Positions 3,863 to 48,000 of a DNA stretch of 64,000 nucleotides are shown piece by piece. This DNA comes from Raillietiella orientalis. Taxonomy: Eukaryota. The stretch's first letter is position 1; each line of letters begins with the position of its first letter. The stretch covers positions 62,001-126,000 of the forward strand of contig JAYWIR010000096.1 in assembly GCA_036172245.1 (NCBI GenBank), in the 5' to 3' direction. The position numbers and the translations under genes are program-made. Under the pieces are notes generated by a model, which saw only the letters and a list, made by a program, of their open reading frames with translations, made no database searches and was not told where the DNA came from.

Positions 3863-6800
3863 GGGGCATTTTTTGTTTAATAAACATTTACAAAGACGTG
3901 CAGTGGCTGGACCATTGCTCCTGCCACTCACGAAGAAACACAGAGCCTGCCTGGTCACCGGTTCGCAGACCGGCACGGTCCACCACGGCAGCAGCAGGAA
4001 GGGAGAAAAAAACAAAAAACAAATTAAAAACAAAAGAAAAAACTGGGAGGGTACCGGAACGGATCAAAGTTGCTGGTGGGGTCGTTGCATCCTTTACAGA
4101 ATGCCTGCAAGCTCCTGCTGCATTCTTGGATCCAGGTGGGGCCATCGCGACGCTCTGTCCAGAAACTAAGAGGCTGGCTGGATGGCACCCTGGTCGCGTT
4201 GTCCTCCCGTAGCCTTGCTCCAGGCGGTGAGGATCCCGCGTAGGTAGCACATAGCTGCTAACGAGGCCGCAGGCCGAAGGGCGTCGGCAACGAAGAGGGC
4301 TTTCAGAGCGTCACTGGGGTTGCCGCAGGGGATTCCGATGGCAGCAGCAAAGCAAAATTAAAGAAGCCGAAGGGCAACACAATCCACTAGCAGGTGGGGG
4401 AGGGACTCCCGTTCCCCACACAGGACGCAATTGGGGTCCACCGTTCCCCAGGTCCAGTATTGTTGGCGAGCGTTGCAGGGTAGTCCCCAGTGCTGCAACA
4501 GGAGAGCCGACTCCCGCCATTTTAAGGGGAGGGTGGAGGTGTTGATTAGTACCGCGAGCCACTTCAAACGTTCGATGGGAGAGTCGAGCAGCGCGCCCCA
4601 GCGAAGAAGTCAATAGAAAGGAGTACTCGGGGTGGCAGCGTCAGTCAGCTGACCCGTCTTCCACTCTCCTATCTTCTCCTTTCCGGAGATTTTTACTGTA
4701 ATCATCCACTTTGCCGCAACATCGCTGTCCAGATCTTTCATCAGGGAGGGCAGCGCAGCAGAGATGGGGGTCTTCCTGCCCACGCTCTCTTCTTTGGATC
4801 CTCCAGGATCTAGCGGAGCGGGCAACTTCTGTAACCCCAAAACAGGAACCTTCGTTCCTGCTGGGAGCGTTCCATGCCGAACTGTTCTGACGTTCGAACG
4901 GTTTCCTACAACCAGGCACTACCGTTCAAAGGGCGACAGGTGACCAATCCTGGGTATTTCCGGTACAGCGCAGCAACCCTCCGTAGCTCCAGTCCGCATC
5001 GGTTGACGCGTCGACGGAGTGCAAGAAACGACGTCAGTCCCGTCTTGCCAATGGGTTGCTTGAGAAGGAGACGTGCAGTGACGCACCAACAGGTGCACCA
5101 CAGCTCTGGAACAACTGCCGACATTTTAAACTGGAGCTGGAGCTCCAGCCGTTCCAGCGTCAGAAGGTCCAGACCACCGTCCCGACGTGGAGCGCACAAG
5201 TCCTTTAAGCGGAAACGGGCCCTCCCGTTGCCAAACAGGGCGATATGGATGGGGTACTTTCTCCGCTTTTTAGTTCTCTCTGTGGGGAAACAAACAGAAA
5301 GCAGGGGGCGAAATGGAGGAGCCGCGAACGTGTTTTAAACCGCGACCCGTTCAGGCAGGAAAGACCTGCCGCCTCGGAACGGGCCGATTGCCGTCTGTAC
5401 TTTTTGGAGGCAGCAGAACCACGCATCCGCAGGGGAGTAGTCCCCCAACGGCACACCAAAGTACTTGAAGTACCTCACCGTGAGGATCCCCAAACGGACC
5501 CAGTCCTGCTGCTTTGCTTTCGCCGCACCATCTGGTATCACGGGCGACTTCGCCCTGTTCACCGTAAATCCGGCTCCCCGATGCAGCAGGTCGAAGAACT
5601 TCTCGACCGCCGAAGCCGGGGTGGACATAGGGAGCAGCAGCAGAAGGTCATCCACGTACGCTGAAACGACCGGAGTACCAGCACAGTCGTGCGGTAGGTG
5701 CGCCAGAGTTCCCCTGTACGTTCTCAGTACCAACTCAAAGTAGGAACTGAAGAGCAAGGGGCTCAGGCTGTCTCTCTGCTGGATCCCACGCTGAACCGGA
5801 ACGCCGTGCACAGTCTGCCCGCTGAAAGTAACTTTGATAAGCGCGTCGCGCCAGTAGGTTCTCAGATAGGTTACTAATAAGGCCAAGAATCCCAAGCGTT
5901 TCATAAGCTTCATAAGGAGATTCTGGTCGACGCAAACGAATGCTGTCCTCAAGTCGACTGCGACCGCAAAGGCTCTCTCCCCCACCCGATCATCCTACCC
6001 CTTACCGGCGCACGCATCGTAATTTCGGCTGCGCACCAAGCTCCTTTCTCGTTGGAGCTCTAGCCAGGTGAAAGCGTAGAATAGGTTCGCCATGCTTCGC
6101 CCGCGACCAGCATATGCCTGTTCTGGGCTGATGAAGATGTTGGCAGCCCTTCCTAACCTCTCTGCTCACATCTTGGCTAGCAACCTGGCGTCCGCATTCA
6201 CTATTGTGATGTGACGCCAGTAGTTCATGCTCTTCAGGTCTCCTTTCTTAGCGAGGAGCCGCACTTTTGCCGAACGAAACAAGGCGGAAAAGTCACCTGT
6301 GTCGTGTATTAGCAAGGTCAGTTGCTCTACCAGGGGGTTGAGCTCAGCCGCGAAGGTTTGGTGAAACTCCGCGGGCATGCCGTCCTCTTCTGGAGCTTTG
6401 CGCTTCTAGAGCTTTCCGATGGCCGAGAGGATCTCGTCCATCGTGAAAGGCTCGTCGAGGGTCTTTCTCTCCCACTCCCGGATCGCCGGAGCGCCTTTCG
6501 GAATAAGGTGCTGTGAGACGTTCCTCTCCGGAGGTGCCCTGGCATACAGGGAGGAGTAATATCTCCGCAGCAGTCCACGGATTTAAGCGGGTGCCGAGTG
6601 CTCCTGGCCCTGATCGTCCAAGAAGCCGGCTGATCCGGACTTCCAGGCTTGCCTCTCGGGTCCCGCTTTGTATTCCGTCAGCTTGCGTATGTCCGGGGTC
6701 CTGGCGTAACGAGGGGCCTGCAGTTAGACTCGCTCGTTACGGACACCGGTCCCAAATCCCGTAGGTATGCGGTGCAGAGGGAACTGGTTGCAGAACAGCT

Positions 6801-8849: not shown

Positions 8850-8983
8850 TTTCCCCAAGTCCCACAAGGGGTGGGGTAAGTTTATTTTTCTATAAAAATA
8901 CAAAATTTACATTCGCACTCTCATTCACTCAATACAATTATTTTGCACTTGGGGGTCCTTGGGTTGCACTAGAGTTCTGCTTT

Positions 8984-11900: not shown

Positions 11901-12485
11901 GGTGCTGTGCAGGACGTGATCGATTGGCTTGTGGCTTGCTGTTCGCCAGACCAATCCAAACTCGTCGGATAGCCGTCGATACGCCGTCCTTCCTCTGGCG
12001 TCTTCCGAATGAATGATCTCATCCAAGATGTTGAGATCGCCAGCAACTATCACGACGTCCTTAGGGGCGACCTTTTGCCGGAGTGTTGCATGCAGCGCCT
12101 CCGCACAACGATGTTTTAGCCTGTGCGGCCCGTACACGTTCACCAGGATAAAGTGAACAGTCGCGGACCAGGCCAGTCGCACGCCGATGATTCGTCCGGG
12201 TTGGGGACAGAACACTTCCAGAATAGTGGGGGCTAAGTTGTTCTTTATTAGCACCGCCACACCCTTCGTGTTCCGTTCTCCTTCGTTGACGAACATCTGC
12301 CCGTTGAATCGCCGTTCTATTCGCTGGCTTATCTCGAGACCCATCCTGTGGGTCTCCTGCAGGCACACGATGTCTTGTTGTGCGATGGTCCGCACAATCC
12401 TTCTTCTTTTTCCCCGGTCGACCACACCGTTTACGTTCCAGGAGGCGATGTTTATCCTCCTGGCGGTCGATAGGGAAGAGGCCAT
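8984..12485 (-). pseudogene. Y ORF2 (APE endonuclease-RT-CCHC) with one frameshift near 11545
   Basis: SWNVNG, LQETH, NVYGP, GDLN, IDH, SDH in 11544-12485; QWRPISILN, DMEKAFD, GVRQGDSLSPMLF, YADD, KYL, CAACGDDDTRLHVLTC in 8984-11530; the two ORFs lie in different frames. Confidence 0.9.
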
Positions 12486-12498
12486 AAAAGGGGAAGAC

Positions 12499-14286: not shown

Positions 14287-14471
14287 CCTGGCAGCTGGTC
14301 TTGCTGCACGGGACCACTGCAGGTCCTTTGCCGCGATCTCCTCGCCGCTTCTTTTTTTTTGTTTCTTCTGGAAAACTTCCCCTTTCCGGGCACACACGAG
14401 CACAATGAACTGATTAAGTTGTCAAGCGCACAATACTTCGAGCCGCGGAGCAAGTTCACCGACTCGGCAGG

Positions 14472-15130
14472 AGCGGAGCGATCTGCCGACTGTCAAGAAG
14501 TTGACTCCGTTGCCGCCTTTTAAAGGCGTAGCGAAATCAACGCCATCAGAGAACGCAGCGAAAATCCCGGAGGTTTCCGCAACTACTGTCGCGGAAGCCT
14601 CCGAAAATCGCGAAGGCAAATGGAAGGTTGTGGAGAGGAGGAAAGAAAAATCTCCAAAGAAAGCTCCGCAACCTCCATCCCTGAGCTCTTCCAAAGGAAA
14701 AAGCAGTCGCGCGAATACGAAAACACGCGCGGCTTGTGACTCTTCGAAGGAAAAAGCCAACGCCTTCAACGCAAGCAAGTCCGCTTCTGTGACCGCCGAG
14801 AAGACCATTCCGGTGCAATCGGACGGATGCAAGCGCACGTCGATCGTGCGAGCATCAGACTTCCCAAAGGAGTCCGATAACGCAGCTGAACGACGCGTAA
14901 CTCGCGCGGGAGCGAGCGCCCGCAGGGCTGAAGCCCTGAGGCGTGACACACTCGCCGCGGAACGGCGAGTGCTCACCCCGGAACCCACAGGTTCTGCACC
15001 CGGGGAGGAGGACCCGATTACGTGCAGCACAGTTGAGGCCGGTGCCAACCGCGCCCTCCAGCCCGTCGTGCTGCTTACTGCCCGCTCGCCGGGTGAGGCG
15101 AGCACCACGGCCTCGCTTTCCCAGCCGTGA
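14472..15130 (+). CDS. X1 ORF1, C-terminal part
   Basis: Continues the frame of 7604 (PSPTRQ|ERSDLPTVKK); its stop overlaps the ORF2 start (TGATG). Confidence 0.85.
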
Positions 15131-18100
15131 TGAGGGCAATCGCGTCTTCTCGTCGTGTTGCCGTAACGTCTTGGAACGTCAACGGGCTCCAACACGAGGA
15201 GAAGAGGCGACTAGGGGCTGACGCTCTGCGCGCCTTCGACTTGACGCTCCTGCAGGAGATTCACAGCATCTCCGGAGAGCAGGCTGCCGAAATCGAACGG
15301 CGCGCGGGCGGAACGCTACTTTATAGGTGCGGCGTTGCACGTACGTGCGGCGTCGCTTTCCTCGTGCGAGGAACTGTGGCGGGAGCGGTGCGCAGCGTTC
15401 GTTTCGACACGGAAGGCCGAGTGGGACAGCTTGTACTCAAGTGGTCCGACTCGATCGACCTTGTCGTAACCAACGTGTACGCGCCGAGCGGTGCTGGACG
15501 ATGGGCCGAAAGGATTGAGTTCTTCGGTACCCTTCAAGGCCAGTGGCTCACTCGATCTCACCCTACTGTGGCCCATCTCATTGCGGGGGACTTAAACGTC
15601 CACCTGCTTTCCGAGAATAGATCCCACAAAAGGGAAAAGTTGCTAGCGGAAGAGATGTGCGCGTCCGTGCACGCGTGCAACTTGTTCGCTAGCGACCCTG
15701 TTATGGCAGCAACGCCGGACCACGTATACCTTGATGAACACTTGCTCTGTCGAGTGGGTCGGAGAGGTCCCGTGCCGTCCGTGCTTTCAGACCACAACAG
15801 GCTCGAGTTCGAGTTGCTCCCGCCAGGCAAGGGGCCTCCAAACTGTTTTTTGAGGATGCCGGCAGACTGGCTAAGCCACCCGGAGGCGGCTGAGCATCTT
15901 CGCCAGTACCTCCTCGGCTTTGCCATAAGTGAGCTCGAGGACTGGGACGATCTGAAAAGATCGGTCCGCGAGTTCTGCTGTCGGTTTCCCTTGCACCAGC
16001 TTCCGCGCGGCTTCGGAGAGGGCGTAGCCAACAGCAGAGATTTTCTGAAGGCCCGCTCCTTTTCCAGGCGCGCGGACGTTGGTCGATTATCCGAGTACAA
16101 GGCCAAGGCCGAGCGCCAGGTCTGGGAGTCAGGGGCGACAGTTCTGCTCGACGACCAGGACCGGGAATGCTCGGCACCAGCCGACGTGCGACGGATAGTC
16201 AGGCGCTATTACTCTTCTCTGTATGCAGAGGCACCGACGGAACGCAGCCTCTCCCGGCTGCTTCTGCCGATTGATGCACCTGTTGTAGACAAGGAGGAAC
16301 GCGCGCGTCTTGATGAGCCCTTCACGGCAGAGGAAATTTCCTCGGCCATCTCGGGGCTCAAGAGACGAAAAGCGCCAGGCGAAGATGGGCTCCTCGCGGA
16401 ATTCTTTCAGTGTTTTGCGGCGGAGCTCATCCCTCTGGTGCTCCAGCTCTCGTCGCTGATGCGAGACTCGCGCGATGTCCCCGCCTCGTTTCGCTCAGCG
16501 AAGATGCGTCTACTGCCGAAAGGCGGAGATTTGCGCCAACTAAACAACTGGCGTCCGATCACATTAGTGAATTCGGACGTCAAGTTGTTCTCGAAACTTT
16601 GGGTGGCGCGGATAAGTAGGATCGCGGAATCTTTGGTAAGTCCGGAGCAGACGTACGCTGTTCCTGGGCGGTCCATGGACGCGAATCTCTTGTTCATCCG
16701 CACATGGCTGCAATTGCAGCATCGTGTGGCGGTGGATCGTCGTGCGGAAGCGAAGCCTTCGATCTCTCACCGACGGAGGCGCGGGACGCAAAGGGAGACA
16801 CCGGGAGCCTTGGCGGTTGCAGTCGATCTGCACAAAGCTTTCGATTGCGTGAACCAAAAGCTTCTTCTTGAGCTTTTGGAACGTCTGGGTCTTCCGGCAT
16901 CCCTGTTGGCGTACTTGCGCTCCTGCTGGCGCCACGCGATTACATCCATTGTTTTCAGTGGCTGGCGCGTGTACGGCGTGCCGGTACGACGAGGAATTAG
17001 GCAGGGTGACAGCTTAAGCCCACTGCTCTTCAGCATCTATTTTGAATTGGTGCTGAAGGCTTACAGGCTGACGCTAGCCAACCTGCCGAGCTCCTGTCCA
17101 GGTACGCCCGCCGTGGCAGCCTATGCCGACGACCTGCTTCTCCTGTTGCCCATGTCCACCCCGACAGCGTCGCTTGAAGATTTCGTTGAGTTGATCCGTC
17201 GTGGTGCGGGCGTGAGCGTTAACAGGAGTAAGTGTATGGTTGTTCCGGTTGGTGCGACGTGGGAGGGGCAGTCCGACTGGATCGACCTGGGGATCCCCAC
17301 GGGCAGGTACCTCAGGTACCTTGGCGTGCCGTTGGGCGACTTCTGCATCTCAGAAGCGTGGTCGGACTGCCTTCGGAAGGCAGAGCGTGCACTTAGCCCG
17401 TTTTCAGGAGGCGAGTTCGTCTTGCCGGAACGGGCCTGCATCTGCAACACCTTCGTTGCCCCCCTCCTCCGCCCCCTGTTTTTTGTTTGTCCACCCCCCC
17501 AGGAAGTCAAAGTCTGGGCGCAGCGCCTTCTACGCAAAGCGTTGTGGGGCGCTGCAAGATCCCGTGTTAGACTTAAAGACTTGGTGGCGCCGCGTCAGGA
17601 TGCAGGCTTGGGCATCCTCGACTTAAACAGCATCGAACTGCAGGTGCAGTTTCGCATGCTACGGCTCTGTGCCAAGCTGTGGTGTACGCCGTGGTGCTTA
17701 CCCGCACGCCTTATACTGAGGCGCTGCACGGGAAGCGAGGGACTGCTTTCGTTGCTACCCCACTTTCGGCACACCAGAATAGGGTTTGGCTTTCCGCTGA
17801 GGCAGCTGTCCTCACTGCTGGAAGCCCAAAGCTGGATCTCCTGCCGCCCCATGAACATTAATGCATGGCGGCAGGAATCTTTTTCATCGTGGGCAGCTTC
17901 CGAAGGAACGCGCCCGGAAGATCTTCGACGCCTGCGACTTCTCCTCAGTCATCAAATGGACGAAGTGATGCAGGACAAGAAGTTGTCGGAACGTCTGGCC
18001 GCCACACCACTCGCCGCAGCGCTGTCTGCCATCAAAGCAAGCAACGACGGTTGCCTAGCGGCGGAATGGGAGTTCTGCAAAATAGCAAGAGTCAGTAAGC

Positions 18101-18699
18101 TCCTCGGCAGCTGGACGACAAAGGAGCTGGTGCAAGCCGCCACACCTCGGAATCGGGCGAAGGGACTGCTTCGGTGGAGCGAACATTTGAGTGTGCCCCC
18201 CGGAGAGATAGTGGTTCCCCCCGTTTGTTTGGACAGCTCCGTGTTCCCCCTTAAGTGGAAACAAGATGTGCTGCTCTTTTTACATTGTGCATTTCACTGT
18301 AATAGGCAGCGAAGTAAAGTTTCCGGGGGAGCCGCTTTGCCAAACTGTTCAAGCTGCGGAGAGATCGAGTCTTTTCCGCACCTTTTGCTGGACTGCGGTG
18401 ACCTCCTGGAACTGTGGCGAAGGCTCACTTCGGCCATCATGCCACAAGGAGGCACTGCCATTGATGTGCTGCGGCGCTTCTTCAGCAGAAATGGACTTTC
18501 GGTTGGCGCGATTGTCGCAACCATGTGTTGCGTTCGCGCCATCGTGAAGGCCCACTATGCCCTGGAGTTGTCATCGCAGCGAAGGGAGGCTCACCTGCTT
18601 GCAGCTCAATTCATGGAGAAGGCTTCGAGGTGGTCTCATCTTCGTGACAAGGTGAATGAGGACATCACCGGCATACATCGCCGGTTTACACACCTTTGA
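15130..18699 (+). CDS. X1 ORF2: intact APE endonuclease-reverse transcriptase-CCHC protein (about 1189 aa)
   Basis: SWNVNGL, LQEIH, NVYAP, GDLN, DH, SDH; NWRPITLVN, DLHKAFD, GIRQGDSLSPLLF, YADD, RYLG; CSSCGEIESFPHLLLDC. Confidence 0.95.
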   Translation: MRAIASSRRVAVTSWNVNGLQHEEKRRLGADALRAFDLTLLQEIHSISGEQAAEIERRAGGTLLYRCGVARTCGVAFLVRGTVAGAVRSVRFDTEGRVGQLVLKWSDSIDLVVTNVYAPSGAGRWAERIEFFGTLQGQWLTRSHPTVAHLIAGDLNVHLLSENRSHKREKLLAEEMCASVHACNLFASDPVMAATPDHVYLDEHLLCRVGRRGPVPSVLSDHNRLEFELLPPGKGPPNCFLRMPADWLSHPEAAEHLRQYLLGFAISELEDWDDLKRSVREFCCRFPLHQLPRGFGEGVANSRDFLKARSFSRRADVGRLSEYKAKAERQVWESGATVLLDDQDRECSAPADVRRIVRRYYSSLYAEAPTERSLSRLLLPIDAPVVDKEERARLDEPFTAEEISSAISGLKRRKAPGEDGLLAEFFQCFAAELIPLVLQLSSLMRDSRDVPASFRSAKMRLLPKGGDLRQLNNWRPITLVNSDVKLFSKLWVARISRIAESLVSPEQTYAVPGRSMDANLLFIRTWLQLQHRVAVDRRAEAKPSISHRRRRGTQRETPGALAVAVDLHKAFDCVNQKLLLELLERLGLPASLLAYLRSCWRHAITSIVFSGWRVYGVPVRRGIRQGDSLSPLLFSIYFELVLKAYRLTLANLPSSCPGTPAVAAYADDLLLLLPMSTPTASLEDFVELIRRGAGVSVNRSKCMVVPVGATWEGQSDWIDLGIPTGRYLRYLGVPLGDFCISEAWSDCLRKAERALSPFSGGEFVLPERACICNTFVAPLLRPLFFVCPPPQEVKVWAQRLLRKALWGAARSRVRLKDLVAPRQDAGLGILDLNSIELQVQFRMLRLCAKLWCTPWCLPARLILRRCTGSEGLLSLLPHFRHTRIGFGFPLRQLSSLLEAQSWISCRPMNINAWRQESFSSWAASEGTRPEDLRRLRLLLSHQMDEVMQDKKLSERLAATPLAAALSAIKASNDGCLAAEWEFCKIARVSKLLGSWTTKELVQAATPRNRAKGLLRWSEHLSVPPGEIVVPPVCLDSSVFPLKWKQDVLLFLHCAFHCNRQRSKVSGGAALPNCSSCGEIESFPHLLLDCGDLLELWRRLTSAIMPQGGTAIDVLRRFFSRNGLSVGAIVATMCCVRAIVKAHYALELSSQRREAHLLAAQFMEKASRWSHLRDKVNEDITGIHRRFTHL

Positions 18700-19025
18700 G
18701 AACGGCGTAATGTGGTTACCCCTGCGACCTCTCGCCCACCCATACCCCGTCCCCGTTCGCTCGGTAAAATTTCCGGTGCCCATGCTTTTATCCCCGTGTC
18801 TTCCAGAGCGATCCCAAAGACCCTTATCCCGTCCTTCTTATTCATTGTTTTTATTTTATTTTGGTTTCTTTGTGTTTCCCGCCCGCCCACACCGTTCAAA
18901 AAACTGTTACTCTGGCCTGCGTGCCAGCAATATTCTCTTCATTCTTGTTCAGTCGTCGGTTAGAGTTTGGTTCCCAACTGGTTTATTTTGTATAATTGCT
19001 TTTTTTTTTTGGTTATGTTATATGG

Positions 19026-19055
19026 AATAAACGCCCCGGCGTGACCGGGTGAGAA
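19026..19055 (+). terminator. AATAAA signal plus terminal GC hairpin, representative copy
   Basis: AATAAAcgcCCCGGcgtgaCCGGGtgagaa; an equivalent occurs at every intact 3' end. Confidence 0.7.
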
Positions 19056-19069
19056 ATCTCTTGCGCTCG

Positions 19070-22000: not shown

Positions 22001-24938
22001 AGGTCTGGCAGTCAAGGGCGACAGTTCCACTTGACGACTAGAACCGGGAATGCTCGTCTCCAGCCGACGTGCGACGGAGAGTCACGCGCTATTACTTTTC
22101 TCTGTGCGCAGAGGCACCGACGGAAAGCAGCCTCTCCCGGCTGCTTCTGCCGATTGATGCCCCTGTTGTAGACGAAGAGGAACGCGCGCGTCTTGATGAG
22201 CCCTTTACAACAGAGGAAATTTCCTCGGCCATCTCAGGGCTCAAGAGACGAAAAGCGCCAGGCGAAGATACGCTCCCCGCGGAATTCTTTCAGTGTTTTG
22301 CGACGGAGCTGATCCCCCTGGTGCTCCAACTCTCGTCGCTGATGCGAGACTCGGGCGATGTCCCCGCCTCGTTTCGCTCAGCGAAGATGCGTCTACTGCC
22401 GAAAGGCGGAGATTTGCGCCAACTGAACAACTGGCGTCCGATCACATTAGTGAATTCGGACGTCAAGTTGTTCTCCAAACTTTGGGTGGCGCGGATGGGT
22501 AGGATTGCGGAATCCTTGGTAAGTCCGGAGCAGACGTACGCTGTTCCTGGGCGGTCCATGGACGCGATTCTCTTGTTCATCCGCACATGGCTGCAATTGC
22601 ATCATCGTGTGGCGGTGGATCGTGGTGCGGAAGCGACGCCTCCGATCTCTCACCGACGAAGGCGCGGGACGCAAAGGGAGACACCGGGAGCCTTGGCAGT
22701 TGCAGTCGATCTGCACAAAGCTTTCGATAGCGTGAAGCAAAAGCTTCTTTTTGAGCTTTGGGAACGTCTGGGTCATCCAGTATCCCTTTAGGCGTACTTG
22801 CGCTCCTGCTGGCGCAACAAGATTACATCCATTGTTTTCAGTGGCTGTCACGTGTACGGCGTGCCGGTACGACGAGGAATTTTGCAGGGTGACAGCTTAA
22901 GCCCGCTGCTCTTCAGCATCTATTTTGAATTGGTGCTGGAGGCTTACAGGCTGACGCTAGCCAACCTGCCGAGCTCCTGTCCAGGTACGCCCGCCGTGGC
23001 AGCCTATGCCGACGACCTGCTTCTCCTGTTGCCCATGTCCACTCCGACAGCGTCGCTTGGAGATTTCTTTGAGTTGATCCGTCGTGGTGCGGGCGTGAGC
23101 GTTAACAGGAGTAAGTGTATGGTTGTTCCGGTTGGTGCGACGTGGGAGGGGCAGTCCGACTGGATCGACCTGGGGATCCCCACGGGCAGGTACCTCAGGT
23201 ACCTTGGCGTGCCGTTGGGCGACTTCTGCGTCTCAGAAGCGTGGTCGGACTGCCTTCGGAAGGCAGAGCGTGCACTTAGCCCGTTTTCAGGAGGCGAGTT
23301 CGTCTTGCCGGAACGGGCCTGCATCTGGAACACCTTCGTTGCCCCCCTCCTCCGCCCCCTGTTTTTTGTTTGTCCACCCCCCCAGGAAGTCAAAGTCTGG
23401 GCGCAGCGCCTTCTACGCAAAGCGTTGTGGGGCGCTGCAAGATCCCGTGTTAGACTTAAAGACTTGGTGGCGCCGCGTCAGGATGCAGGCTTGGGCATCC
23501 TCGACTTAAACAGCATCGAACTGCAGGTGCAGTTTCGCATGCTGCGGCTCTGTGCCAAGCTGTGGTGTACGCCGTCGTGCTTACCCTCACGCCTTATACT
23601 GAGGCGCTGCACGGGAAGCGAGGGACTGCTGTCGTTGCTACCTCACTTTCGGCACACCAGAATAGGATTTGGCTTCCCGCGGAGGCAGCTGTCCTCACTG
23701 CTCGAAGCCCAAAGCTGGATCTCCTGCCGCCCCATGAACATTAATGCATGGCGGCAGGAATCTTTTTCATCGTGGGCAGCTTTCGAAGGAACGCGCCCGG
23801 AAGATCTTCGACGCCTGCTACTTCTCCTCAGTCATCAAATGGACGAAGTCATGCAGGACAAGAAGTTGTCGGATCGTCTGGTCGCCACAATTCTCGCCGC
23901 AGCGCTGTCTGCCCTCAGGGCAAGCAACGACGGTTTCCTACCGGCGGAATGGGAGTTCTCCTGCAAAATAGCGGGAGTCAGTAAGCTCTTTGGCAGCTGG
24001 ACGACAAAGGAGCTGGTGCAAGCCGCCACACCTCGGAATCGGGCGAAGGGACTGCTTCGGTGGAGCGAACATTTAAGTGTGCCCCTCGGAGAGATTGTGG
24101 TTACCCCCGTTTGTTTAAACAGCTCCGCGTTATCTCTAAAGTGGAAACAAGATGTGCTGCTCTTTTTACATTGTGCATTTCACTGTAATAGGCAGCGAAG
24201 CATCGTTTCCGGGGGAGCTGCTTTGCCAAACTGTTTAAGGTGCGGAGAGATCGAGTCTTTTCCGCATTTTTTGCTGCACTGCGGTGACCTCCGGGAACTG
24301 TGGCGAAGGCTCACTTCGGCCATCATGCCACAAGGAGGCAGTGCTGTTGATGTGCTGCGAGGCTTCTTCAGCAGAAATGGACTTTCGGTTGGCGCGATTG
24401 TCGCGACCATGTGTTGCGTTCGCGCCATCGTGAAGGCCCGCTACGCCCTGGAGTTGTCAGCGCAGCGAAGGGAGGCTAACCTGCTTGCAGCTCAATTCAT
24501 GGTGAAGGCTTCAAGGTGATCTCATCTTCGTGACAAGGTGAATGAGGACATCACCGGCATACATCGCCGGTTTACACACCTTTGAGAACGGCGTAATCCG
24601 GTGACACCTGCAACCTCTCGCCCACCCATACCACGTCCCCGTTCGCTCGGTAAAATTTCCGGTGCCCATGCTTTTATCCCCGTGGCTTCCAGAGCGATCC
24701 CAAGGACCCTTATCTCGTCCTCCTTATTCATTGTTTTTATTTAATTTTGGTTTCTTTGTGTTTCCCGCCCCCCCACACCGTTCAAGAAACTATTACTCTG
24801 GCCTGCGTGCCAGCAATATTGTCTTCATTCTTGTTCAGTCGTCGGTTGGGAGTTTTGTTCCCAACTGTTTTATTTTGTACAATTGCTTTTTTTGTTTATG
24901 TTATATGGAATAAACGCCCCGGCGTGACCGGGTGAGAA
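19070..24938 (+). mobile_element. Second tandem X copy (X2), degenerate, with internal deletion and a Y remnant
   Basis: Colinear with X1; lacks the X1-equivalent interval about 7973-13633; ORF2 21030-24585 has multiple stops and a frameshift; AATAAA at 24909. Confidence 0.92.
19554..20355 (-). mobile_element. 5' remnant of a Y element at the same X-ORF1 site as in X1
   Basis: Matches 13634-14455 and is followed by tcgccgactaggcagg. Confidence 0.9.
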
Positions 24939-24952
24939 ATCTCTTGCGCTCG

Positions 24953-27226: not shown

Positions 27227-28134
27227 GATGTTGCTGGCATGTTTCTCGCCCTCCTCTTTCGTTTTAGCTCGGCGCTCTCCTTAATCGAGTGGCCCAGCAG
27301 CTTACAGTATCGGCAACTACGTGTTGGGCACTTTCGCGGACGGTGGCCTTCCTTCCCGCAGTTGCCGCAAGCGGGGGTTTGTCCGGCAAACCGGAGATAG
27401 ATGACGACGTCTCCGAGGAGGATCTGCGAAGAAATGAGACTCCGGTCGTCCATGGTGACGCGCGCCGTCGCGAGTCCGCAAGAGAGGCGCTCCACTTTAT
27501 CTATGGGATTCGCGCTCCTCCACATAGAGTGCAATGTGGTGAACGCCTATTGTGCAACAATGATGTCGCTTTCCGTTATTCTCGGCCGAATCCCCGAGAG
27601 CTGGACCACGAACGAGTAGTCCAGGGCCGAGGGAACGACCTCCTGATACCTGATTTTCAGGGGGGTTCGCAGCAGCCGCTGGACGAGGGCTGCATCCTTG
27701 CAGTGCACCTCCCAATGGCCTACCGCGCTCACTGGCATAAGCGCCAAGAGATCGTCTTCTCGGACCCCTACGCATTCCAGCTCGCTCCGGAACTGGTCGC
27801 CCGTCCCATTCCGGTACGCGGCAATGACCTTGTTGACCAGAGGGGGGTTGTAGCTTCTCGCGGCGTACGCCCGCAGTTCTGCCTCGTCGGATGGGGCTCC
27901 GTGAGCCGCCGCTGCCTTAGCAACGGCGGCAAAACTTCTCGCTGGAGGCGAGGGACGATCGCTGGAGGCTTTCGCTCCTCCCTAAGAAGGTCCTGCGACG
28001 CAGGGGGATTCCTCCACCTCCATTTCTGCAGGCACTGGCTTCATTTTCAAATGAAAAATCGCACCACACCCAACAGGAACAGATGCAAAGAAGCACCGAA
28101 GACAAAGCGCAAGAATACACGTCCGAACAATATA
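27227..28134 (-). mobile_element. 5' UTR plus partial degenerate ORF1 of a LINE (family W)
   Basis: GGACGTG at 28118-28124; YLRFAGQTPACGNCGKEGHRPRKC and CRYCKLLGHSIKE. Confidence 0.85.
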
Positions 28135-28149
28135 GGGGGGTCGGCTGTG

Positions 28150-29100
28150 TATCACCCGGGTGCGCCGGGGCGTTTATTACCAACTATCCAATAACAAAGT
28201 TCCCGGACAAAGGAATAAACAAGAGACGAAGATGGTGGGATCCCCGACACGCAGGTCGGTATGCCGAAAGTCCGGAACGGGAGGGAGGGAAACACAAATA
28301 CACCGTATAGAAAAAAATAAAAATGAATATATGTTGGGCAGGGGACAGGGGTCTTTGCTTTTGCCGTTCCTTCCTTTCACAACCGGCGATGGATGCCGGC
28401 GATCTCCTTCCTCAAGCTCTCTAGAAGATGCCGTTACTCGGCTGCCGATGAAATGCTGGCGCTGGCTAAGTTGGTGGGCAGACGAAGGATGGCCAACTTC
28501 TCCAGTTGTCGCTGGGCCTTGTCGATGGCGCGGATGCAACACACGGTTGAAACAACAGCACATAAGGACAGGCCGCCTGGCGTGAAGAAGCGGCGCATCA
28601 ACTCCCTCGCGGTGTCCCCCTGGTGCAGGAGAGCTAAGGCCAGCTTTTGTCACACTCCTAGGAATGCACTGCAGTACAGGAGCAGGTGCGGGAGCGCTTC
28701 CACTTCCCCGCACCGCTTGCAGTTTGAGGAGACAACTCCCCCGGAAACACGGTTCGTCAGCTGCTTGGAGTAAAAACCCCAATGCATCAGCATAATCACG
28801 TCCTGCTTCCACGAAAGGAGGAACACAGAAGTGTTCAAACACGAGGGAGGTACCACAAGTTCTTCGGGAAGCACACTCAAGTGTTCGCTCCACCGAAGGA
28901 GTCCCTTCGGAACCTGGCGAGGCGTGGCGGCATCTGCAAGCTCGCAAGACCTCCAGCCGCCAATAGGTCGGGTTGTTTCTGCGATAGTGCAGGCGACCTG
29001 TCATCTCGCCGGATCGCAGCTGTCATCTCTCCCCCTGAGGGCTGACAGCACATCGGCGAGGAGCGCTACGGCCAGGAGAGACCAATTCTCCTGCCTATTG
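28150..29100 (-). mobile_element. 3' fragment of a LINE (family W): ORF2 C-terminus, 3' UTR, terminal hairpin
   Basis: CKRCGEVEALPHLLLYC; AATAAAcgccccggcgcacccgggtga at the end. Confidence 0.85.
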
Positions 29101-30485: not shown

Positions 30486-33426
30486 TGCCACCCGGATACG
30501 CCAAAACGTTTATTAGAAACATTTCAACGGTCAATACAGAACGTGGTACAAGGCCCCACTGACGGCCACGGAATGCCGGAACTGCCAAGACATGGGACGC
30601 AGCCCGGTGTGGCTCTCCTCGGCAGTGGAGGGGGATAAGGAAAAAACAAAAATAAAATAAAATAGAAAAACAAACCACAAAAGAAAGTTTAAAGGGGCGG
30701 GAAGGGATCACAGAAAACTGCTGGGAGCGCCCATCCTTTGCAGGATGCCTTCTAGTTCCATTTTCAGCTTTCCTAGATGGGGCCATCGGAAAGCTCTCAG
30801 CAGGAAGCGCGAAGCATACTCGATAACGTCCCTCACGATGCAGTCTTCATCTCCGGCATCACTCCAGGCCGCCACGATACCACGAATGCAGCAAAGTGCT
30901 GCCAGGGCTGCGGCTGGACTGAGAGCGTCCCGCACGAAGACAAGACTGAAGATACATTCAACATTGCCACCATCCAGTATCCGGAGGGCCGTTTTCAGAC
31001 GATCCCAAAAAATCCGGACGGCAGGGCATTTAACTAAGAGGTGGGGGAGCGACTCCCGCACCCCACACCTGGCACACGCAGAATTTACTCTTCCCCGCGT
31101 CCAGTGGAAGCGGCGCGCGTTGCAGGGTAGACCACAATGCAGCCACAGAAGCGCAGATTCTTGCCACTCCAGGGGGAGAATCCTGGATCCAAGTAGAACC
31201 GGGGGCCACTTCAGGTCATCCAATCGAATTCCGAGCAGCTCGCTCCATCTTCTTAATCCACGCGGCTGGAGAGTAGGGGTCGTTGCATCTGTCAACTCTC
31301 CCATGATCCAGTCGCTCATCATATTCTCTCTGCCTGCGATACGGCAGCAGACTTGCCACCTTGGCTTCCGGCTTTCGTAAAGCGCCCTTTGGAGAAAGGG
31401 CATCGCCGTAACAAGGGGTGTGCCTTCCGCCCACGTGCAACTCGGTGGAAATTCAAGAATTTCACGGAGAGTGCGGCGGGCGTATAAGCCGACTCGCAGG
31501 CGGTTCATCCGGTCTTCGCACCTGTGGTTCTGCTCAGCCCAGGTGCCAGCAGTCTCTTCCAGCCAAGCGAAGGAGTTGGCAGGGCCACAAACCATCCAGT
31601 CGTTCTCCTTTGCCAGGGTTGCCATGCGGCCGAGCATTAGACCGCATCTTCGAATCTTCCGGCCAGGGCACAGAAGAAACGATGCGAGTCCTTCGCAGCG
31701 GGACACACGCCTGGCCAGGAGGCAGGCCGGAATGCACCAAGCGGTGCTCCACATCTTCGCTGCGATGGCGAGGGTCCGCCATCGCAGCTGGATTTCCACG
31801 CGCTCCAGCGTCAGGATGCTGAGACCGCCGTCCCGACGCGGAGCGCACAAGTCCTTCAAAGGGACTCGGGGCCTCCCCTTGCCCGAAAGAGCTATGCGGA
31901 GGAGGTCCTTAGTCCGCTTTTCTGATTCCACGGGGGCGGGGCAAACAAAAAGCAAAGGGCGGAGGATGGGGGCCGCGAAGGCGTTCCGAACCGCGGCCCG
32001 TTCCGGCAAGTGAAACCTGCCCTCCAGGAACGGGCCGATCGCCGTCTCGACTTTCTGGAGGCAGCTGGACCACGCTTCCGCAGGGGAGAAGTCCCCCAAC
32101 GGCACATTGAGGTACTTGATGCACCTCACCGTGGGGATACCCAGACGGACCCAGTCCTGCTGCCCAGCCCACGTCGCTCCAACTGGCAACACTGACGACT
32201 TCGCCCTGTTAACCTGTAATCCGGCCCCACGGCTAAGCAGGTCGAAGAAATCTCCGACCGCCTTAGCCGGAATGGACATAGGTAAGAGGAGCAGAAGATC
32301 GTCGGCATACGCCGCTACGGCTGCCGTGCCGGCGCACGAGCTCGGCAAGGGGGCCAAAGTCACCCTGTACGCTTTCAGCACCAACTCAGCGTAGGTGCTA
32401 AAAAGCAGGGGGCTGAGGCTATCGCCCTGCCTTATGCCCCGCCGCACCGGCACGCCATACACCTTCTGTCCACTGAAAGTAATTGAGATTATCGCGTTCC
32501 GCCAGCAAGAGCGCAGGTAGGTAATCAAGGAGGGTGGGAAGCCCATGCGACCCAGGAGCTCCAAGAGGAGTTCCTGGTCAACACAGTCGAATGCCTTATG
32601 GAGGTCGACTGCGATCGCTAAGGCCCCCTTTCCCGCATGAAGGTCCCTTCCCTGTTTCACTGGCGGCCCCAAAGTAGGGTTGCAAATTTTCCCTTTCCCT
32701 TCTTTATTACTCCGCTGCGCGTGCATCCATGTGCTCGCGAAGAAGAGGTTGTCCTCCATACTTCGCCCGGGAACAGCGTAAGTCTGCTCCGGGCTAATTA
32801 TGGAATTGGACACCTGCCCCAATCGCGAAGCCCACAGCCCGGCAATCAACTTGGCGTCCGTGTTCACAATCGTGATCGGACGCCAGTTGCAAAGTTTCCT
32901 GAGGTCTCCTCCCTTCGGGAGGAGCCTCACCCTGACTGACCGAAACAAGGCGGAAACATCGCCTTCGTCTTGGTATCCCGTTGTCAACTCGAGCACCAGG
33001 GGGGCCAGCTCTTCCGCGGAACTCTGAAAGAACCCTGCGGGCAAGCCGTCCTCCCCTATCGCCTTACGCCTCTTGAGCCTTTTGATACCGGCTAGAATTT
33101 CACCGGTCGTGAAAGGCTCATCGAGGCTTTCTCCCTCCTCCTCCTTTATCGCCACGGAACCACTCATGAGCAATCCCCGCGAGGCGTCTTGTTCGGGTGG
33201 TGTTTTGGCGTAAAGGGAGGAATAAAAACACCGCACGAGTTTCCGTACGGCAGACGGGGACGATCTTTCCCGGCCCATGTCATCCAGCATGCTGGCGGAC
33301 CCGGATTGCCAGGCTTGTCGCTCGGCTCCGGCGCGGTATTCGGCCAGGCGACGGACATTGGGGTTCCTCTCGTGACGACTAGCGTGCAAATACGCGCGTT
33401 CGTTGCGAGCCCCTTTGCCGAATCCC
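30486..33426 (-). mobile_element. Z-related LINE 'K': open ORF2 from GFG to the stop at 30708, plus 3' UTR
   Basis: About 900 open codons with DLHKAFD, GIRQGDSLSP, YADD, CARCGVRESLPHLLVKC; AATAAA plus hairpin at about 30486-30514. Confidence 0.92.
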
Positions 33427-36400: not shown

Positions 36401-39124
36401 GGCGCTTGCTTCCGGATGACGCCCCGGCAATAGGGGAGGAGGAGATGGAAAGCCTCGACGAGCCTTTTACCACCGGCGAAATTCTCGCCGGTATCAAAAG
36501 GCTCAAGAGGCGTAAAGCTCCAGGGGAAGACGGCTTGCCCGCAAAGTTCTTTCAGAGCTTCGCGGAAGAGCTGGCACTCCTGCTGCTTAAGTTGATCAGG
36601 CTGATCCGAGACGAAGGCGATGTTCCCGCCTCGTTTCAATGAGCCAGAGTGAGGCTCCTTCCGAAAGGGGGAGACCTCAAGGATTTGAAGAACTGGCGTC
36701 CGATCACGATCGTGAATACGGACGCCAAGTTGATCGCAGGGCTATGGGCTTCGCGTCTGGGGTAGGTGGCAGAATCCGTAATTAGCCCAGAGCAGACTTA
36801 TGCTGTTCCCGGGCGAAGTATGGATGCCAACCTCTTCTTCGCAAGCACATGGGTGCACCTGCAGAGAAGAGAAAAGAAAGGGATAGGGAAAGTGGGCAAC
36901 CCCACATTAAGGCCGCTAGCCGGGCTGGGAAGGGACCCCCGGGCAAGGAAAGGGGCCCTAGCGCTCGCAGTCGATCTCCACAAGGCGTTCGATTGCGTAG
37001 ACCAGGAACTCCTCTTGGAGCTCCTGGGTCGCATGGGCTTTCCACCCTCTTTGATTTCCTACCTGCGCTCTTGCTGGCGGAATGCGATAATTACCGTCTC
37101 TTTCAGCGGTCACAAGGTGCATGGAGTGCCGGTGCAGCGGGGCATAAGGCAGGGAGATAGCCTAAGCCCCCTGGTCTTGAGCACCTATTTTGAGTTGGTG
37201 CTGAGAGCGTACAGGGTGAATCTGGTCCCATTGCCAAGCTCGTTCCCCGGCACGTCCGCCGTTGCAGCGTACGCCGACGATGTTCTACACTTGTTGCCAA
37301 TGTCCACCCCGGCAAAGGCGGTCGGAGACTTCTTCGATCTGCTCAGCCGCGGGACCGTACTGCAGGTTAACAGGGCGAATTCGTCGGTGGTGCCAATAGG
37401 TGCGGCGTGGGCAGGGCAGCAGGACTGGATCCGCTTGGGGATCCCCACGGGCAGGTGCTTCAAGCACCTTGGCGTTCCGTTGGGCGACTTCTGCGTTGCA
37501 GAAGCCTGGTAGGACCGTCTCCAAAAGGTGGAGTTGGCGATCGGCCCGTTCCGGAACCGCAAGTTTTACTTGCAGGAGCGGGCCGCGGTGTGGAACGCGT
37601 TCGCGGCCCCCCACCTTCGCCCCTTACTTTTTGTTTGCCCCGCCCCTCCCATCATACAGAGACGGACCAAAGCCCTCTAGAGGACTGCCCTTTGGGGCAC
37701 AGCGAGGTCGCGAGTCCGATTGAAATACTTGTGCGCTCCACGCAGGGATGGTGGCTTGGGCCTCCTTACGTTGGAGCGCATCCAAAATCAAACAACAATT
37801 CAAAATTTAGCCCTTGCGGCTTGCTTATGGATGACGCCATGGTGCGATCGGGCACGGCTCCTCGCGAGAAGAGCGACCGGCTGCAGAGGATTGTCCTCGA
37901 TCCTCGTGGCCTACCAGCGCAGCCTCTGCAACTGTGGCCCCGAGTTGCGCCAGATGGTCGCCCTGATGAGGGAGAATACCTGGATCTCCTGTCTCTCCGC
38001 TAACTGCACTGCCTGGCTTCAGGAGTCAGCTTACGCGTGGGCTAAGATCAACGACACGAGCGAGGCGGAATACAACTGCCTACGACGAGGACCGTACGCT
38101 CGACAGCCGCTGCAGGATATTATCAACACGCTTCGGAAATTTCTGTGGGCTTCTCTCAGCCCCCTTGCCCCCGTTCTGTCCTCCCTAAAAAACTTAAGGA
38201 GCAGAAACGAGCGGGCATCGTGGGAAGTGTCCTGCCTCAGCCGAGGCAGGAAATAACCTACAAATGCGTGGACGACTCGGGAGATCAAGGACGCTGCCAC
38301 CCCCAGCGTCCCGCCTCACGGACTTGCGCGCTAGGGAGTGCTGCGTGCAATACTCCCGGAGGAGTTGAAGTGGCCCTTAGCGTGTTGAAATTGCGGCACA
38401 CTTCCGTTGAAGTGGCAGGAGACGGCGTTGCTATTTCTGCACTGGGGACTGTTAAGCAGAGCACGCCTGTCTCACTGGACACTGGAGTATGTGGATGCCC
38501 GCTGTGGCGAGTGCGGAGAAAGAGATACCTTCCCGCATCTCATTCTCGAGTGTGTCGCCCTGAATGGTCTCTGGAGTCGAATCGCCCCAATCCTCCAGCT
38601 TCCAGTAGACGACCCTAAGGAAATTTACCGTCCCCTCTTTCTTTGCGACGGTCTGCGCCCCGCTGCGTCTCTAGCAGTCCTCTGCTGCGTGCGCGGCATT
38701 GTGCAAAGGTGGCACGCCAGAAGAAGAGGCTCAGGATGCAAAGACGCCATCCACTGGATGACGATCCCTTTAGAGATGGCGACAGGGTGGCGTCTACCTT
38801 TCACAATAAGAACCGAACTGGACTGCATCCTCAACATTATGCGGAGGACCGACTTAGGCGCCCAGTAATCCCTTCCCTGCCGCTTCCTTCTCCCCATACA
38901 ACGGTTTCCCTCCTTGTTATGTCTCTTTTTGTTTGATTTTGTTCTAGTTTTCCCTTCCCATGCGCCTCGGAAATGGACCTAACCGGTATATGCACCGGCA
39001 ACCGACAAGTCAACCAAGGTGGGAAAACCAAGTGTTTCCCACAATTAACTTTTGAAAGACTTTATTATCTAATTCTTGTAGAAAATTAGAATAATAAATG
39101 CCTCGGCATATCCTTGTGGCAAAC
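33427..39124 (+). mobile_element. Full-length but chimeric, degenerate LINE 'L' (Z-type 5' part, V-type 3' part)
   Basis: ORF1 33524-35282 and ORF2 35282-38868, both with stops; matches Z copies up to about 37425 and matches 57757-59462 after that. Confidence 0.88.
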
Positions 39125-43600: not shown

Positions 43601-44082
43601 GGGCAGCACCCCCAGAGACGTTCTTCGGCCCCTCTTCGTGAAGGACGCACTGCAGCCAGCCGCAGCCATCGCAGCCTTGTGCTGCGTCCGTGGCATCGTG
43701 GCGGCATGGAGCGACGCCAACAACGAAGGAGTGGGTCCACAGGCGAGGGATGTCATCTTGTATGCCCAACGCTTCTTGCCAAGAGCTGCCGGATGTCCCC
43801 AACAGGGAAATATGCAGACATACCTCGAGTAGTTCGTTCGACGGATGGGCCCTCCCCACAGCGACCAGTGATGCCTTCCCTGCCCTCCAACTTCGTTTTG
43901 TTTGTTTCTTTTTTATATTTTTATTTTTGTTTTATCCCCATTCGCCTTCGCTGCTGAGGAACGCTACGCTGGGCTGGGTCCCGGCGTTTCGGCAGGTCCA
44001 GTGCGTATGACCGTGAGCGGAGCCTTGTACCGCGGATGTAGAGTTTTAACAATAAGCGCCCTGTGCGTACTTGGGTGTAAAC
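40668..44082 (+). mobile_element. 5'-truncated degenerate LINE (family U): partial EN, RT, CCHC, 3' UTR
   Basis: GDFN, SDH, DLHKAFD, GIRQGDSLS, CADD, CGRCGERESLPHLLVDC; ends aataagcgccctgtgcgtacttgggtgtaaac. Confidence 0.88.
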
Positions 44083-45030: not shown

Positions 45031-48000
45031 TTATCACCCGGGTACGCCCGGGGCGTTCATTTGGGAACTCTACATGCGTGGTACGAGAAACCACTACGGC
45101 CGCAAACAAAGGATCTGTAGGGACACCAGGACGCATCCCAGCGTGGCACTTACCGACAGCGAAGGGTGATAGGGATGAGACCAAAAACAAAAAAAAAAAA
45201 AGGAAACAAACAAAAAGAAGTTGGAGGACAGGGAATGGATCACTGGTCGCTGTGAGGAGGGCCCATCCGTCAAACCAAGCCCTCGAGGTCTGTCTGTATA
45301 TTCCCCAGTTGGGGCCATCCGGCAGCTTTCGGCAAGAAGCGTTGGACATACGGGATGACATCCCTCGCGTGTTGACCCACTCCTTCCTTGTTGGTGTCGC
45401 TCCATGCCGCCACGATGCCTCGGACGCAGCACAAGGCTGCAAGGGCTGCGGCTGGTTGCAGGGCGTCCTTCACGAAGAGGGGCCGAAGAACGTCTCTAGG
45501 GGAACTGCCCGTTGGGAGACCGAGGATCGTCCCAAACCGTTCCCAAAGAGGTCGGAGGGCAGCACAATCCGCAATAAGGTGGGGGCGCAAATCTCGCTCC
45601 CCTGAGCTGGCACACGCAGGATCCACAGCTCCCCTCGTCCACTGGAAGCGGCGTGCGATGCTGGGTAGACCCCAGTGCAACAGCACCAACGCGGACTCTT
45701 CCCACTTGAGGGGCAGGATCCTGGATTCTTTTATAACCGGGACCACTTCAGCTCATCCATGGGGATGGCGAGCAGCTCGCCCCATCTTAATAATCCTCGA
45801 GGCTGGACGCTCGTAGTCGTGGCGTCGGCCAGTTCTCCTGTTGTCCAGCCGCTCATCAACTTCTCGCGTCCCTCGATGCAGCAGGAGACTTGCCAACTCG
45901 GCGTCCGGCTGCTGTGAAGTGCCCTCCTCAGGAAGGGCAACGCCGTAGCTCGGCAGGTCGTCTCTGCCCACGTGAATCTTGCTGGACCCTCCAGGAGATT
46001 CCGCAGCATGCAGCGGGCGTAGGGGCTGCATCGGTGACGATTCCACGTTTCGTGGCTTTTCTGATTCACCACTGCCCACGTTCCGATGTTCTCCTCCAGC
46101 CAGGCGGGGGAGTTGGCGTGCAGCAAACCATCCAGCTGTTCTGCTTAGCCAATATTGCCATGCGCCCGAGCAGTAGGCCGCATCTTCGCATCTTCCGGCC
46201 ACGGCTCAGAAGAAAAGACGCGAGTGCATAGCACCGGGACAGACGAAGGGCCAGGAGGAGGGCCGGAATGCACCAAGGGGTGCTCCACATCTTCGCTGCG
46301 ATGACGAGGGTTCGCCACCGCAGTTGCTTATCCACGCGCTCAAGCGTCAGGAGGCAAAGACCGCCGTCCCGACGCGGAGCGCATAAGTCCTTCAGAGGGA
46401 CTCGGGGCCTCCCCTTGTCCCAAAGGGCGATACGGAGGAGGTGCTTTGTTTTCTTCTTTGATTCCACGGTGTGGAGGCAAACAAAAAGCAAGGGGCTGAG
46501 AATGGGGGCTCGAAGGCGTTTTAAACCGCGGCCCGTTTTGGCAAGTAAAACTTGCCTTTCAGGAACGGACCGATCGCCGTCTCGACTTTTTGGAGGCTGC
46601 TGGAGCACGCTTCCGCAGAAGAGTAGTCCCCCAATGGCACACCAAGGTACTTGAAGAACCTCGCCGTGGGGATACCTAGACAGACACAGTCCTGCAGCCC
46701 TGCTCACGCCGCACCTATTGGCACCACCGGCGACTTTGCCCTGTTGACCTGCAGTCCGGTCCCGCGGCTTAACAGATCGAAGAAGTCTCCGACCGCCTTT
46801 GCCGAGGTGGACATTGGCAACAAGAGCAGAACATCGTCGGCGTACGCTGCTACGGCGGGCGTGCCAGGGCACGAGCTCGGCAAGGGGGCCAAAGTCACCC
46901 TGTACGCTCTCAGCACCAACTCAAAGTAGGTGCTGAAGAGCAGGGGGCTGAGGCTATCCCCCTCCCTCATGTTCCGCCGCACCGGCACGCCATACACATT
47001 GTGACCGCTGAAAGAGACGGTAATCATCGCATTCCGCCAGCAAGAGCGCAGGTAGGACATTAGGGAGGGTGTCAAGCCCATGCGACCCAGGAGTTCCAAG
47101 AGCAGTTCCTGGTCTACACAGTCGAATGCCTTGTGAAGATCGACTGGGAGCGCTAAAGTCCTCTTCCCTACCCGGGGTTCCCTTCTTAACCCGGCTGGCG
47201 GCCCCAATGTGGGATTGGCGACTTTCCCTATCCCTTTCTTCTTTTTTCTCTTCAGGTGCACCCATGTGCTTGCGAAGAAGAGGTTGGCATCCATGCTTCG
47301 CACGGGAACAGCATAAGTCTGCTCCGGGCTAATTATGGATTGTGCCACCTGCCTTAGACGCGAAGCCCATAGCTCGGCAACTAACTTGGCGTCCGTATTC
47401 ACAATCTTGCTCGGACGCCAGTTGTTTAAATTCCTAAGGTCTCCCCCTTTTCGAAGGAGCCTCGCTCTGGCTGACCGAAACGAGGCGGGAACATTGCCTT
47501 CGTCACGGTTCAGCCTGATCAACTTAGTTAGCAGGGGTGCCAGCTCCTCCGCGAAAATCTGAAAGAACTTCGCGGGCAAACCGTTTTCCCCTGGAGCTTT
47601 ACGCCTCTTGAGCTTGTTGCTACCGGCGAGAATTTTGACAGTGGTAAAAGACTCGTCAAGGCTTTCCATGTCTTCCTCCCCTAATGCCGAGGCACCATCC
47701 GGAAGCAAGCTCCAAAAGGCGTCTGAATCCGTGGGCTCCTTGGCGTACAGGGAGGAATAAAAACTCTGCACGAGATGCCGTACGGACGCCAAGGACGAAC
47801 ATTACCGGCCCTGGTCGTCCAGCAAGCTGGCCGACCCGGGTTGCTAGGTTTAACGTTCGGCCCCGGCGCGGTACACGGCCAGGCTACGGAAATTAGGGGT
47901 TCTCTCAGACCTACGAGCCTGTAAATAGGCCCGATGGTTGCGAGGATCCTCGCCGAATCCGGGATGCAGGCGGTCCAGGGGGAACTGCTCGTAACACTCC

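Follow-up and report, generated by a model that had tools for sequence, protein, structure and literature searches.

A group of related LINEs in this 64-kb window (the whole stretch of DNA that was analysed) carries in its 3'UTRs a short hairpin, five base pairs capped by a six-nucleotide loop that most often reads CUGCGU, and comparison of its copies indicates that it is probably a selected sense-strand RNA element of L1-like, site-specific, poly(A)-less LINEs. By analogy with LINEs of the stringent type, we give about even odds (roughly 0.5) to template selection by an element-encoded protein that docks on the hairpin. An element of this kind was to be expected in a newly seen LINE group, and no new mechanism is involved.

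The window is a nest made almost wholly of related non-LTR retrotransposons (G+C content 53-62%), the long frames of which encode an APE endonuclease domain and an RT domain, as autonomous LINEs do. A tblastn search of the window with the ORF2 of the X1 element located at least 17 copies, complete or partial, spread over the two strands, and 11 copies retain the 3' end of one group: X1, X2, X3, W, K, R, E13, E11, D, V1, and V2 (E13 and E11 are elements Q and U of the first-pass annotation). The last 700 nt of ORF2 place these copies in the clades (X1,X2,X3,W), (D,(E13,R),(E11,K)), and (V1,V2), between which the DNA encoding the ORF2 C-terminus is about 43-60% identical. A twelfth element, Z, is distant, with 28-30% amino acid identity to the X ORF2 and three CCHC knuckles in its ORF1, and carries no CUGCGU hairpin. 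The coding reference and the Z element lie as follows:

15127..18699, plus strand: X1 ORF2, an intact frame of 1190 aa with APE and RT domains, in the element that hosts the X1 hairpin
8842-14520, minus strand, and 1-455, plus strand: Z element, inserted in X ORF1

The best solved-structure match of X1 ORF2 is human L1 ORF2p (E 9.9e-45), with R2 proteins at about 1e-14. Protein database searches found nearest proteins at most 31% identical to X1 ORF2, and a protein search of the Atlas found generic RT/APE clusters only. The ORF1 of the X, R, and Z families contains two to three CCHC zinc knuckles. With an APE and RT ORF2 nearest L1, a CCHC ORF1, and a specific target with a target-site duplication, the host elements are candidate Tx1-like site-specific LINEs of the L1 superfamily, where L1-like refers to the best solved-structure match. 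The 5.9-kb tandem X units (13635-19055 and 19053-24938, and also 24936-27224) have in common a Z piece in minus orientation, which marks them as DNA-level duplicates, with deletion, of one Z-interrupted X copy and not as separate retrotranspositions.

The hairpins were found at the following positions, the minus strand being the sense strand of the elements for D, W, K, R, X3, and E13:

18912..18927, plus strand: X1 hairpin, CUGGC-CUGCGU-GCCAG, starting 212 nt past the ORF2 stop codon (18697-18699)
24798..24813, plus strand: X2 hairpin, identical in sequence to X1
60165..60180, minus strand: X3 hairpin, as X1 but with GCCAT, so that the outer pair is a broken C.U and four of five pairs stand
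28244..28259, minus strand: W hairpin, CCGAC-CUGCGU-GUCGG, differing from X in two pairs on both sides
30582..30625, minus strand: K extended stem-loop, apical 16 nt at 30592-30607, three of the five universal pairs retained
50781..50825, minus strand: R extended stem-loop, apical 16 nt at 50792-50807, four of the five universal pairs retained
45115..45159, minus strand: E13 extended stem-loop with loop AUGCGU, apical hairpin CTGGG-atgcgt-CCTGG at 45126-45141, five apical pairs of which two are G.U
43951..43995, plus strand: E11 extended stem-loop with loop CUGGGU, apical hairpin CTGGG-ctgggt-CCCGG at 43969-43984, five apical pairs of which one is G.U
3947..3991, minus strand: D extended stem-loop, apex CCGGU-CUGCGA-ACCGG at 3958-3973
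38983..38998, plus strand: V1 hairpin, CCGGU-AUAUGC-ACCGG, stem retained and loop not CUGCGU
59318..59333, plus strand: V2 hairpin, CCGGU-CUAUUC-ACCGG, stem retained and loop not CUGCGU
18836..18889, plus strand: pyrimidine tract, T-rich then C-rich, immediately upstream of the X1 hairpin

All eleven hairpins follow the end of ORF2 homology by approximately 110-215 nt and precede an AATAAA by 64-98 nt, and the layout of a T-rich and then a C-rich tract followed by the hairpin also occurs in the other ten tails. An nhmmer profile of the tails, run on the 64-kb window, returned exactly these 11 tails and one 31-nt tail fragment (59461-59491), so that the count of 11 of 11 is complete and not a selection. 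Contigs of three sequencing runs were compared with positions 24400-31000; those of one DNA run contain an extra X-family tail with 15 differences over 24590-24950 and none in the hairpin, and those of the other two matched an A-rich stretch only. The first-pass annotation had quoted hairpins in X, W, D, K, R, Q, U, and V, all of which exist, with GGG-ctgcgt-CCC at the apex of K and R. Its conserved CUGCGU hexaloop holds in part: the loop is exact in six of the 11 tails, is one letter off in three, and departs by three to four letters in V1 and V2.

MAFFT, run on the 11 tails (each of 190-224 nt) without any hint of the hairpin, placed all eleven 16-mers in columns 88-103. RNAalifold predicted two helices only on this alignment, the hairpin and a terminal helix, and also predicted the hairpin within each of the three clades. 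Paired combinations fill 51 of 54 cells of the helix (94.4%), compared with 24-48% after a shift of the 3' partner by 1-3 columns, and all five pairs are intact in eight tails, with four in X3 and R and three in K. In a covariation check on this alignment, three of the five pairs were found changed on both sides: the closing pair is C-G in four tails, G-C in four, and U-A in three; pair 2 is C-G in four, U-A in three, and U.G in two; and pair 4 is G-C in ten and A-U in one (W). The covariation score is 0.538, compared with 0.212 +/- 0.049 for shuffled alignments, and was reached by none of 500 shuffles.

Because family members are related, a template scan and a drift simulation were added as controls. 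A template of a 5-bp stem with loops of 3-9 nt, moved across the whole 11-tail alignment, ranked the hairpin helix as the single best of 1673, with sub-registers of the same helix at ranks 2-3 and the terminal helix next. Neutral drift was simulated along the ORF2 tree from a perfect ancestral stem, and the observed level (at least 51 of 55 paired cells and at least three covarying pairs) appeared in none of 20,000 runs with branch lengths as estimated and in one of 20,000 with these lengths halved. The earlier proposal that a stem replaced with its pairing kept marks a selected RNA structure is supported by covariation, template scan, and drift simulations, and by the excess of G.U cells described below. 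The sample comprises approximately eight distinct stems in three clades of one 64-kb window, so that a formal R-scape-type test would have little power. The CTGCGT hexamer alone is scarcely enriched in the window (53 matches vs 40.4 expected), and the seven of these 53 sites that have at least three flanking Watson-Crick pairs are the six UTR hairpins and a chance site at 37740, which lies within an ORF2 and has a 3-bp stem. What carries the signal is the covarying helix at its aligned position and not the CTGCGT word.

The Rfam comparison called for in the first-pass annotation matched the hairpin to no family: release 15 at gathering score gave no matches across the whole window, a search at E up to 10 gave none in 18700-19070, and 50680-50920 gave one sub-threshold chance match (14.2 bits, the gathering score being 33). 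When metagenomes were scanned for the terminal motif described below, two loci of ordinary GC-rich sequence without a LINE tail came up, which are chance matches. Stop-free frames cross the X1 UTR, and a coding origin was rejected in view of indels of 1, 2, and 4 nt between tails.

Mean identity in the loop columns is 0.83, compared with 0.53-0.61 in the flanks; loop letter 2 is U in all 11 tails, position 3 is G in nine, and position 5 is G in ten. CUGCGU or a one-letter variant of it is retained in two of the three clades, the V clade being without it. In the clade comprising K, R, E13, E11, and D (the B/D clade), RNAalifold extends the hairpin into a 16-bp two-helix stem-loop, in which the hexaloop caps an inner helix of 8 bp and a 7-nt loop, confined to the 5' side, separates this from an outer helix of 8 bp. 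This extended structure is paired in 91.1% of cells, compared with 35-47% when slid, and two more of its pairs change on both sides. No pairing past the apical 5 bp was seen in X, W, or V, either in the alignment by eye or by RNAalifold on those clades. In B-clade tails, e.g. at 50739-50755 (minus strand), a small second hairpin, GUGG-N9-CCAC, stands between the covarying stem-loop and AATAAA, and in E11 it shows one compensatory change from U-A to C-G.

Cells of G.U outnumber cells of A.C by 3 to 1 in the universal helix and by 10 to 1 in the extended B/D structure, an excess that favours a structure in sense RNA over one in the antisense strand or in duplex DNA. When single sequences were folded, the hairpin reached a pair probability above 0.5 in three of the 11 UTRs taken whole and in four of the 11 taken as 80-nt contexts, and it is likewise contained inconsistently in the minimum free energy folds of the 11 tails; the isolated hairpin has a folding energy of -3.1 to -6.3 kcal/mol. 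The match list raised the idea that the loop might pair with complementary ACGCAG sites in other parts of the element, an idea that is unsupported.

A second hairpin block, more conserved in sequence and overlooked by the first-pass annotation, forms the end of the tails:

19026..19055, plus strand: X1 terminal block, consisting of AATAAACG, CCCGG-CGTGA-CCGGG, and TGAGAA, at the element end without poly(A)
24909-24938, 44051-44077, 39093-39119, and 59431-59457, plus strand: further copies of the terminal block
60040-60069, 28153-28178, 30488-30514, 45035-45061, and 50701-50727, minus strand: further copies of the terminal block

In general the tails end in AATAAACG, CCCGG, 4-5 nt, CCGGG, and TGA, a pattern with six exact matches against 0.09 expected, and this block is the most conserved part of the alignment (mean column identity 0.83). 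Its helix is paired in 89-91% of cells and shows one-sided C-to-U changes that give G.U pairs; covariation is unsupported in either register, since its scores were attained by 110-132 of 500 shuffles. In K, the terminal hairpin (30488-30514, minus strand) has TTTT in its 5' arm where other tails have CCCC, four adjacent C-to-T changes that leave G.U pairing in the sense RNA. Where junctions were read, the elements stop 6-7 nt past the terminal hairpin and approximately 30 nt past the start of AATAAA, and no A-run, terminal short repeat, or microsatellite was present at any of these 3' junctions. The stringent-LINE setting suggested earlier is upheld in that the hosts are APE and RT LINEs and their copies end without poly(A). 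The 3' end of Z is analogous, with AATAAAC followed by a CCCCA...TGGGG hairpin and GAAACC. The terminal block is a likelier start site of reverse transcription than the internal hairpin, which would then be a second determinant. The V2 tail (59431-59491, plus strand) abuts the AATAAA of a second, E11-type tail fragment, which then continues into the same flank as E11 has from 44078 on; V2 thus replaced everything upstream of that AATAAA.

Junctions could be read for six tails, and each of the six stands at the target motif of its own family. For K, E13, and R the motif is antisense to ORF2 codons ~294-297 (sense GG(A/T)TTCGGC); for X1, X2, and X3 it is ATCTCYTGCGCT, which reads antisense to codons ~52-56 of ORF2:

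30475-30486, 33417-33428, 45021-45032, 50687-50698, and 56470-56484: B-clade target junctions, antisense inside the ORF2 of sibling LINEs
7475-7486, 19056-19067, 24939-24950, and 60028-60039: the 12-nt ATCTCYTGCGCT sites of the X family

The 9-10-nt B-clade motif is repeated at both junctions and also stands between the head-to-tail pair R and E13, which points to site-specific homing into the ORF2 of relatives with a target-site duplication that recreates the target. In the X family, ATCTCYTGCGCT flanks the 5' start of X (7475) and the 3' end of X3 (60028) and also stands between the tandem X units.

The docking reading was adopted because a covarying helix with a conserved loop is present and because the ORF2-bound stem-loops of stringent LINEs offer an analogy. 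The exposed loop on a generic stem would dock an element-encoded protein, with ORF2p the likeliest partner by that analogy, and the bound hairpin would mark the RNA as a template for target-primed reverse transcription. The near-invariant terminal block (AAUAAACG, hairpin, and UGA), 6-7 nt from the 3' end, may then set the exact start of the cDNA. ORF1p (through its CCHC knuckles) and host factors are equally candidate partners of the hairpin. Counting against docking, the hairpin is not terminal, standing 64-98 nt before AATAAA, and the terminal block is the more conserved in sequence; the V clade has not retained the loop; one or two pairs are broken in K, R, and X3; and the helix forms unreliably when sequences are folded singly. 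Should the hairpin serve as a protein-binding signal, it would offer a compact cis-element, with natural compensatory variants, for template choice by a poly(A)-less L1-like LINE, and would let one test whether loop identity sets cross-family compatibility.

Two alternatives keep the selected helix and change its partner. We consider it unlikely, if a serious alternative, that the hairpin serves RNA metabolism through host factors (3'-end formation before AAUAAA, stability, or export) and not the choice of RT template, acting jointly with the conserved U-rich/C-rich tract just before it. The order of pyrimidine tract, hairpin, AATAAA, and terminus is common to all 11 tails, AATAAA stands at a normal cleavage-signal distance of approximately 30 nt from the element end, and a V clade with the stem but without the loop fits a structural role better than a sequence-specific one; retention of the loop across two clades with ORF2 C-terminal DNA ~45-50% identical nevertheless suggests a sequence-specific reader. 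A packaging signal for ORF1p, in which two CCHC knuckles grip the unpaired G residues of the loop, is similarly unlikely. Zinc knuckles of retroviral nucleocapsid grip unpaired G residues in this way, and such a signal would suit the two to three knuckles in the ORF1 of X, R, and Z, the prevalence of G at loop positions 3 and 5 (9 and 10 of 11 tails, respectively), and a hairpin that is internal and away from the priming end. Against it, 3'UTR recognition in the L2 clade, R2, and SART1 is assigned to the RT-bearing protein in the account given by PMC4176376.

Other alternatives take away the hairpin's own specific role. That the terminal AAUAAACG-hairpin-UGA block alone serves RT recognition and priming, with the internal hairpin an accessory or a folding-insulator without a specific partner, is distinctly improbable; it draws on the block being the most conserved part of the tail (0.83, and six exact matches vs 0.09 expected), on a block end 6-7 nt from the junction, and on the analogous AATAAAC and hairpin at the end of the distant Z, but it leaves the sequence conservation of the internal loop unexplained, and the terminal helix has no covariation support, so that the block may act as sequence only. 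Very improbable is a hairpin without function, be it a palindrome passed on by descent, a site acting in DNA, or a pattern that arose by chance and caught the eye. Family members are not independent of one another, CTGCGT is barely enriched (53 vs 40.4), and chance did supply the 3-bp stem at 37740 inside an ORF2; yet neutral drift simulations fail to reproduce the pattern, pairing stands at 94.4% vs 24-48% when slid and is the unique best of 1673 templates, the half-sites change in a way that a DNA-binding dimer would not tolerate, and G.U cells are in excess over A.C cells. The reading we prefer for the hairpin is still the docking of a protein that the element encodes.

A wider proposal is that CUGCGU on a stem free to vary, together with the invariant terminal block, forms a shared code of diverged, co-resident LINE clades with cross-acting proteins, and we hold this to be doubtful. 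The clades of the UTR alignment are those of the ORF2 C-terminal tree, the loop is not retained in the V clade, and the nhmmer profile of the tails found no tail-only or SINE-like copy in the 64-kb window. Cross-family mobilisation has no positive evidence in the window, and tails at their own sites argue against frequent events. The element at 33428-39122 is a chimera, 92-95% R-like to ~37468 and then 84-89% V2-like to its 3' end; it breaks at the end of the RT domain, so that its V-type part comprises the C-terminal third of ORF2 and the 3'UTR. It could have arisen by template switching between co-packaged RNAs or, equally, by DNA recombination within the nest. The chimera is a hint towards the shared code in that it fits co-packaging with template switching, and is also a hint of a C-terminal domain that travels with its cognate tail. 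Precise family-specific targets make trans-mobilisation readable, as a tail at another family's site would show it. If the shared code holds, a bipartite 3' signal in an L1-like lineage without poly(A) would recall the stringent ancestor from which, as PMC4176376 sets out, relaxed L1 is proposed to descend.

The well-described 3' stem-loops of stringent-type LINEs are the class to which this hairpin belongs. As described in PMC4176376, the ORF2 protein of stringent LINEs binds a 3' stem-loop, of which it recognises the stem in a general way and the loop in a specific one, and the 3'UTR is required in UnaL2, ZfL2, R2, and SART1, with retrotransposition of R2Bm, R2Dm, and SART1 depending on a structured 3'UTR. 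UnaL2 of eel and ZfL2-1 and ZfL2-2 of zebrafish likewise place a short 3'UTR stem-loop in an APE and RT LINE without reliance on poly(A), and the general reading of stem and specific reading of loop reported for them (PMC4176376) matches the covarying stem and conserved loop found here. UnaL2 and ZfL2 belong to the L2 clade, whereas the RT here is L1-like by best solved-structure match. Their stem-loop lies in the terminal tail beside short repeats, whereas the present hairpin lies 64-98 nt upstream of AATAAA in tails without terminal repeats. The elements of the window also differ in having a second, terminal hairpin block, and a partner SINE was not seen in the 64 kb.

R2 and SART1 share with the elements described here specific insertion sites and precise 3' junctions. 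R2 has a restriction-like endonuclease and a larger, multi-helix 3'UTR. Unlike R2, the present elements have an APE and target the ORF2 coding sequence of sibling LINEs. The nest is alike in logic to the clusters that Zepp and ZeppL, L1-type elements of green algae, form by inserting into their own kind, and the Zepp arrays, in the description of PMC8226300, are mostly 3' ends that result from nested insertion with 5' truncation. The LINEs of this window differ in targeting two specific ORF2 codon motifs in antisense orientation.

In structure, there is a likeness to experimentally recognised LINE stem-loops of the kind described in PMC5135761, in which an asymmetric internal loop is set 4-6 bp below the apical one; those of human L1, SART1 (R1 clade), and others have a 5-7-nt loop and a bulge 4-6 bp from it (PMC5135761; Grechishnikova and Poptsova, 2016). 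X, W, and V depart from this type in that a helix extending past the five apical pairs is not evident in them. Positional conservation is reported in PMC5135761 within the L1 and Alu of one species, whereas here compensatory change is seen between deeply diverged families. The B/D stem-loop resembles the L1 and SART1 type: a 6-nt loop tops an inner helix with a universal part of 5 bp, and a one-sided internal loop of 7 nt separates the inner helix from the outer one of 8 bp.
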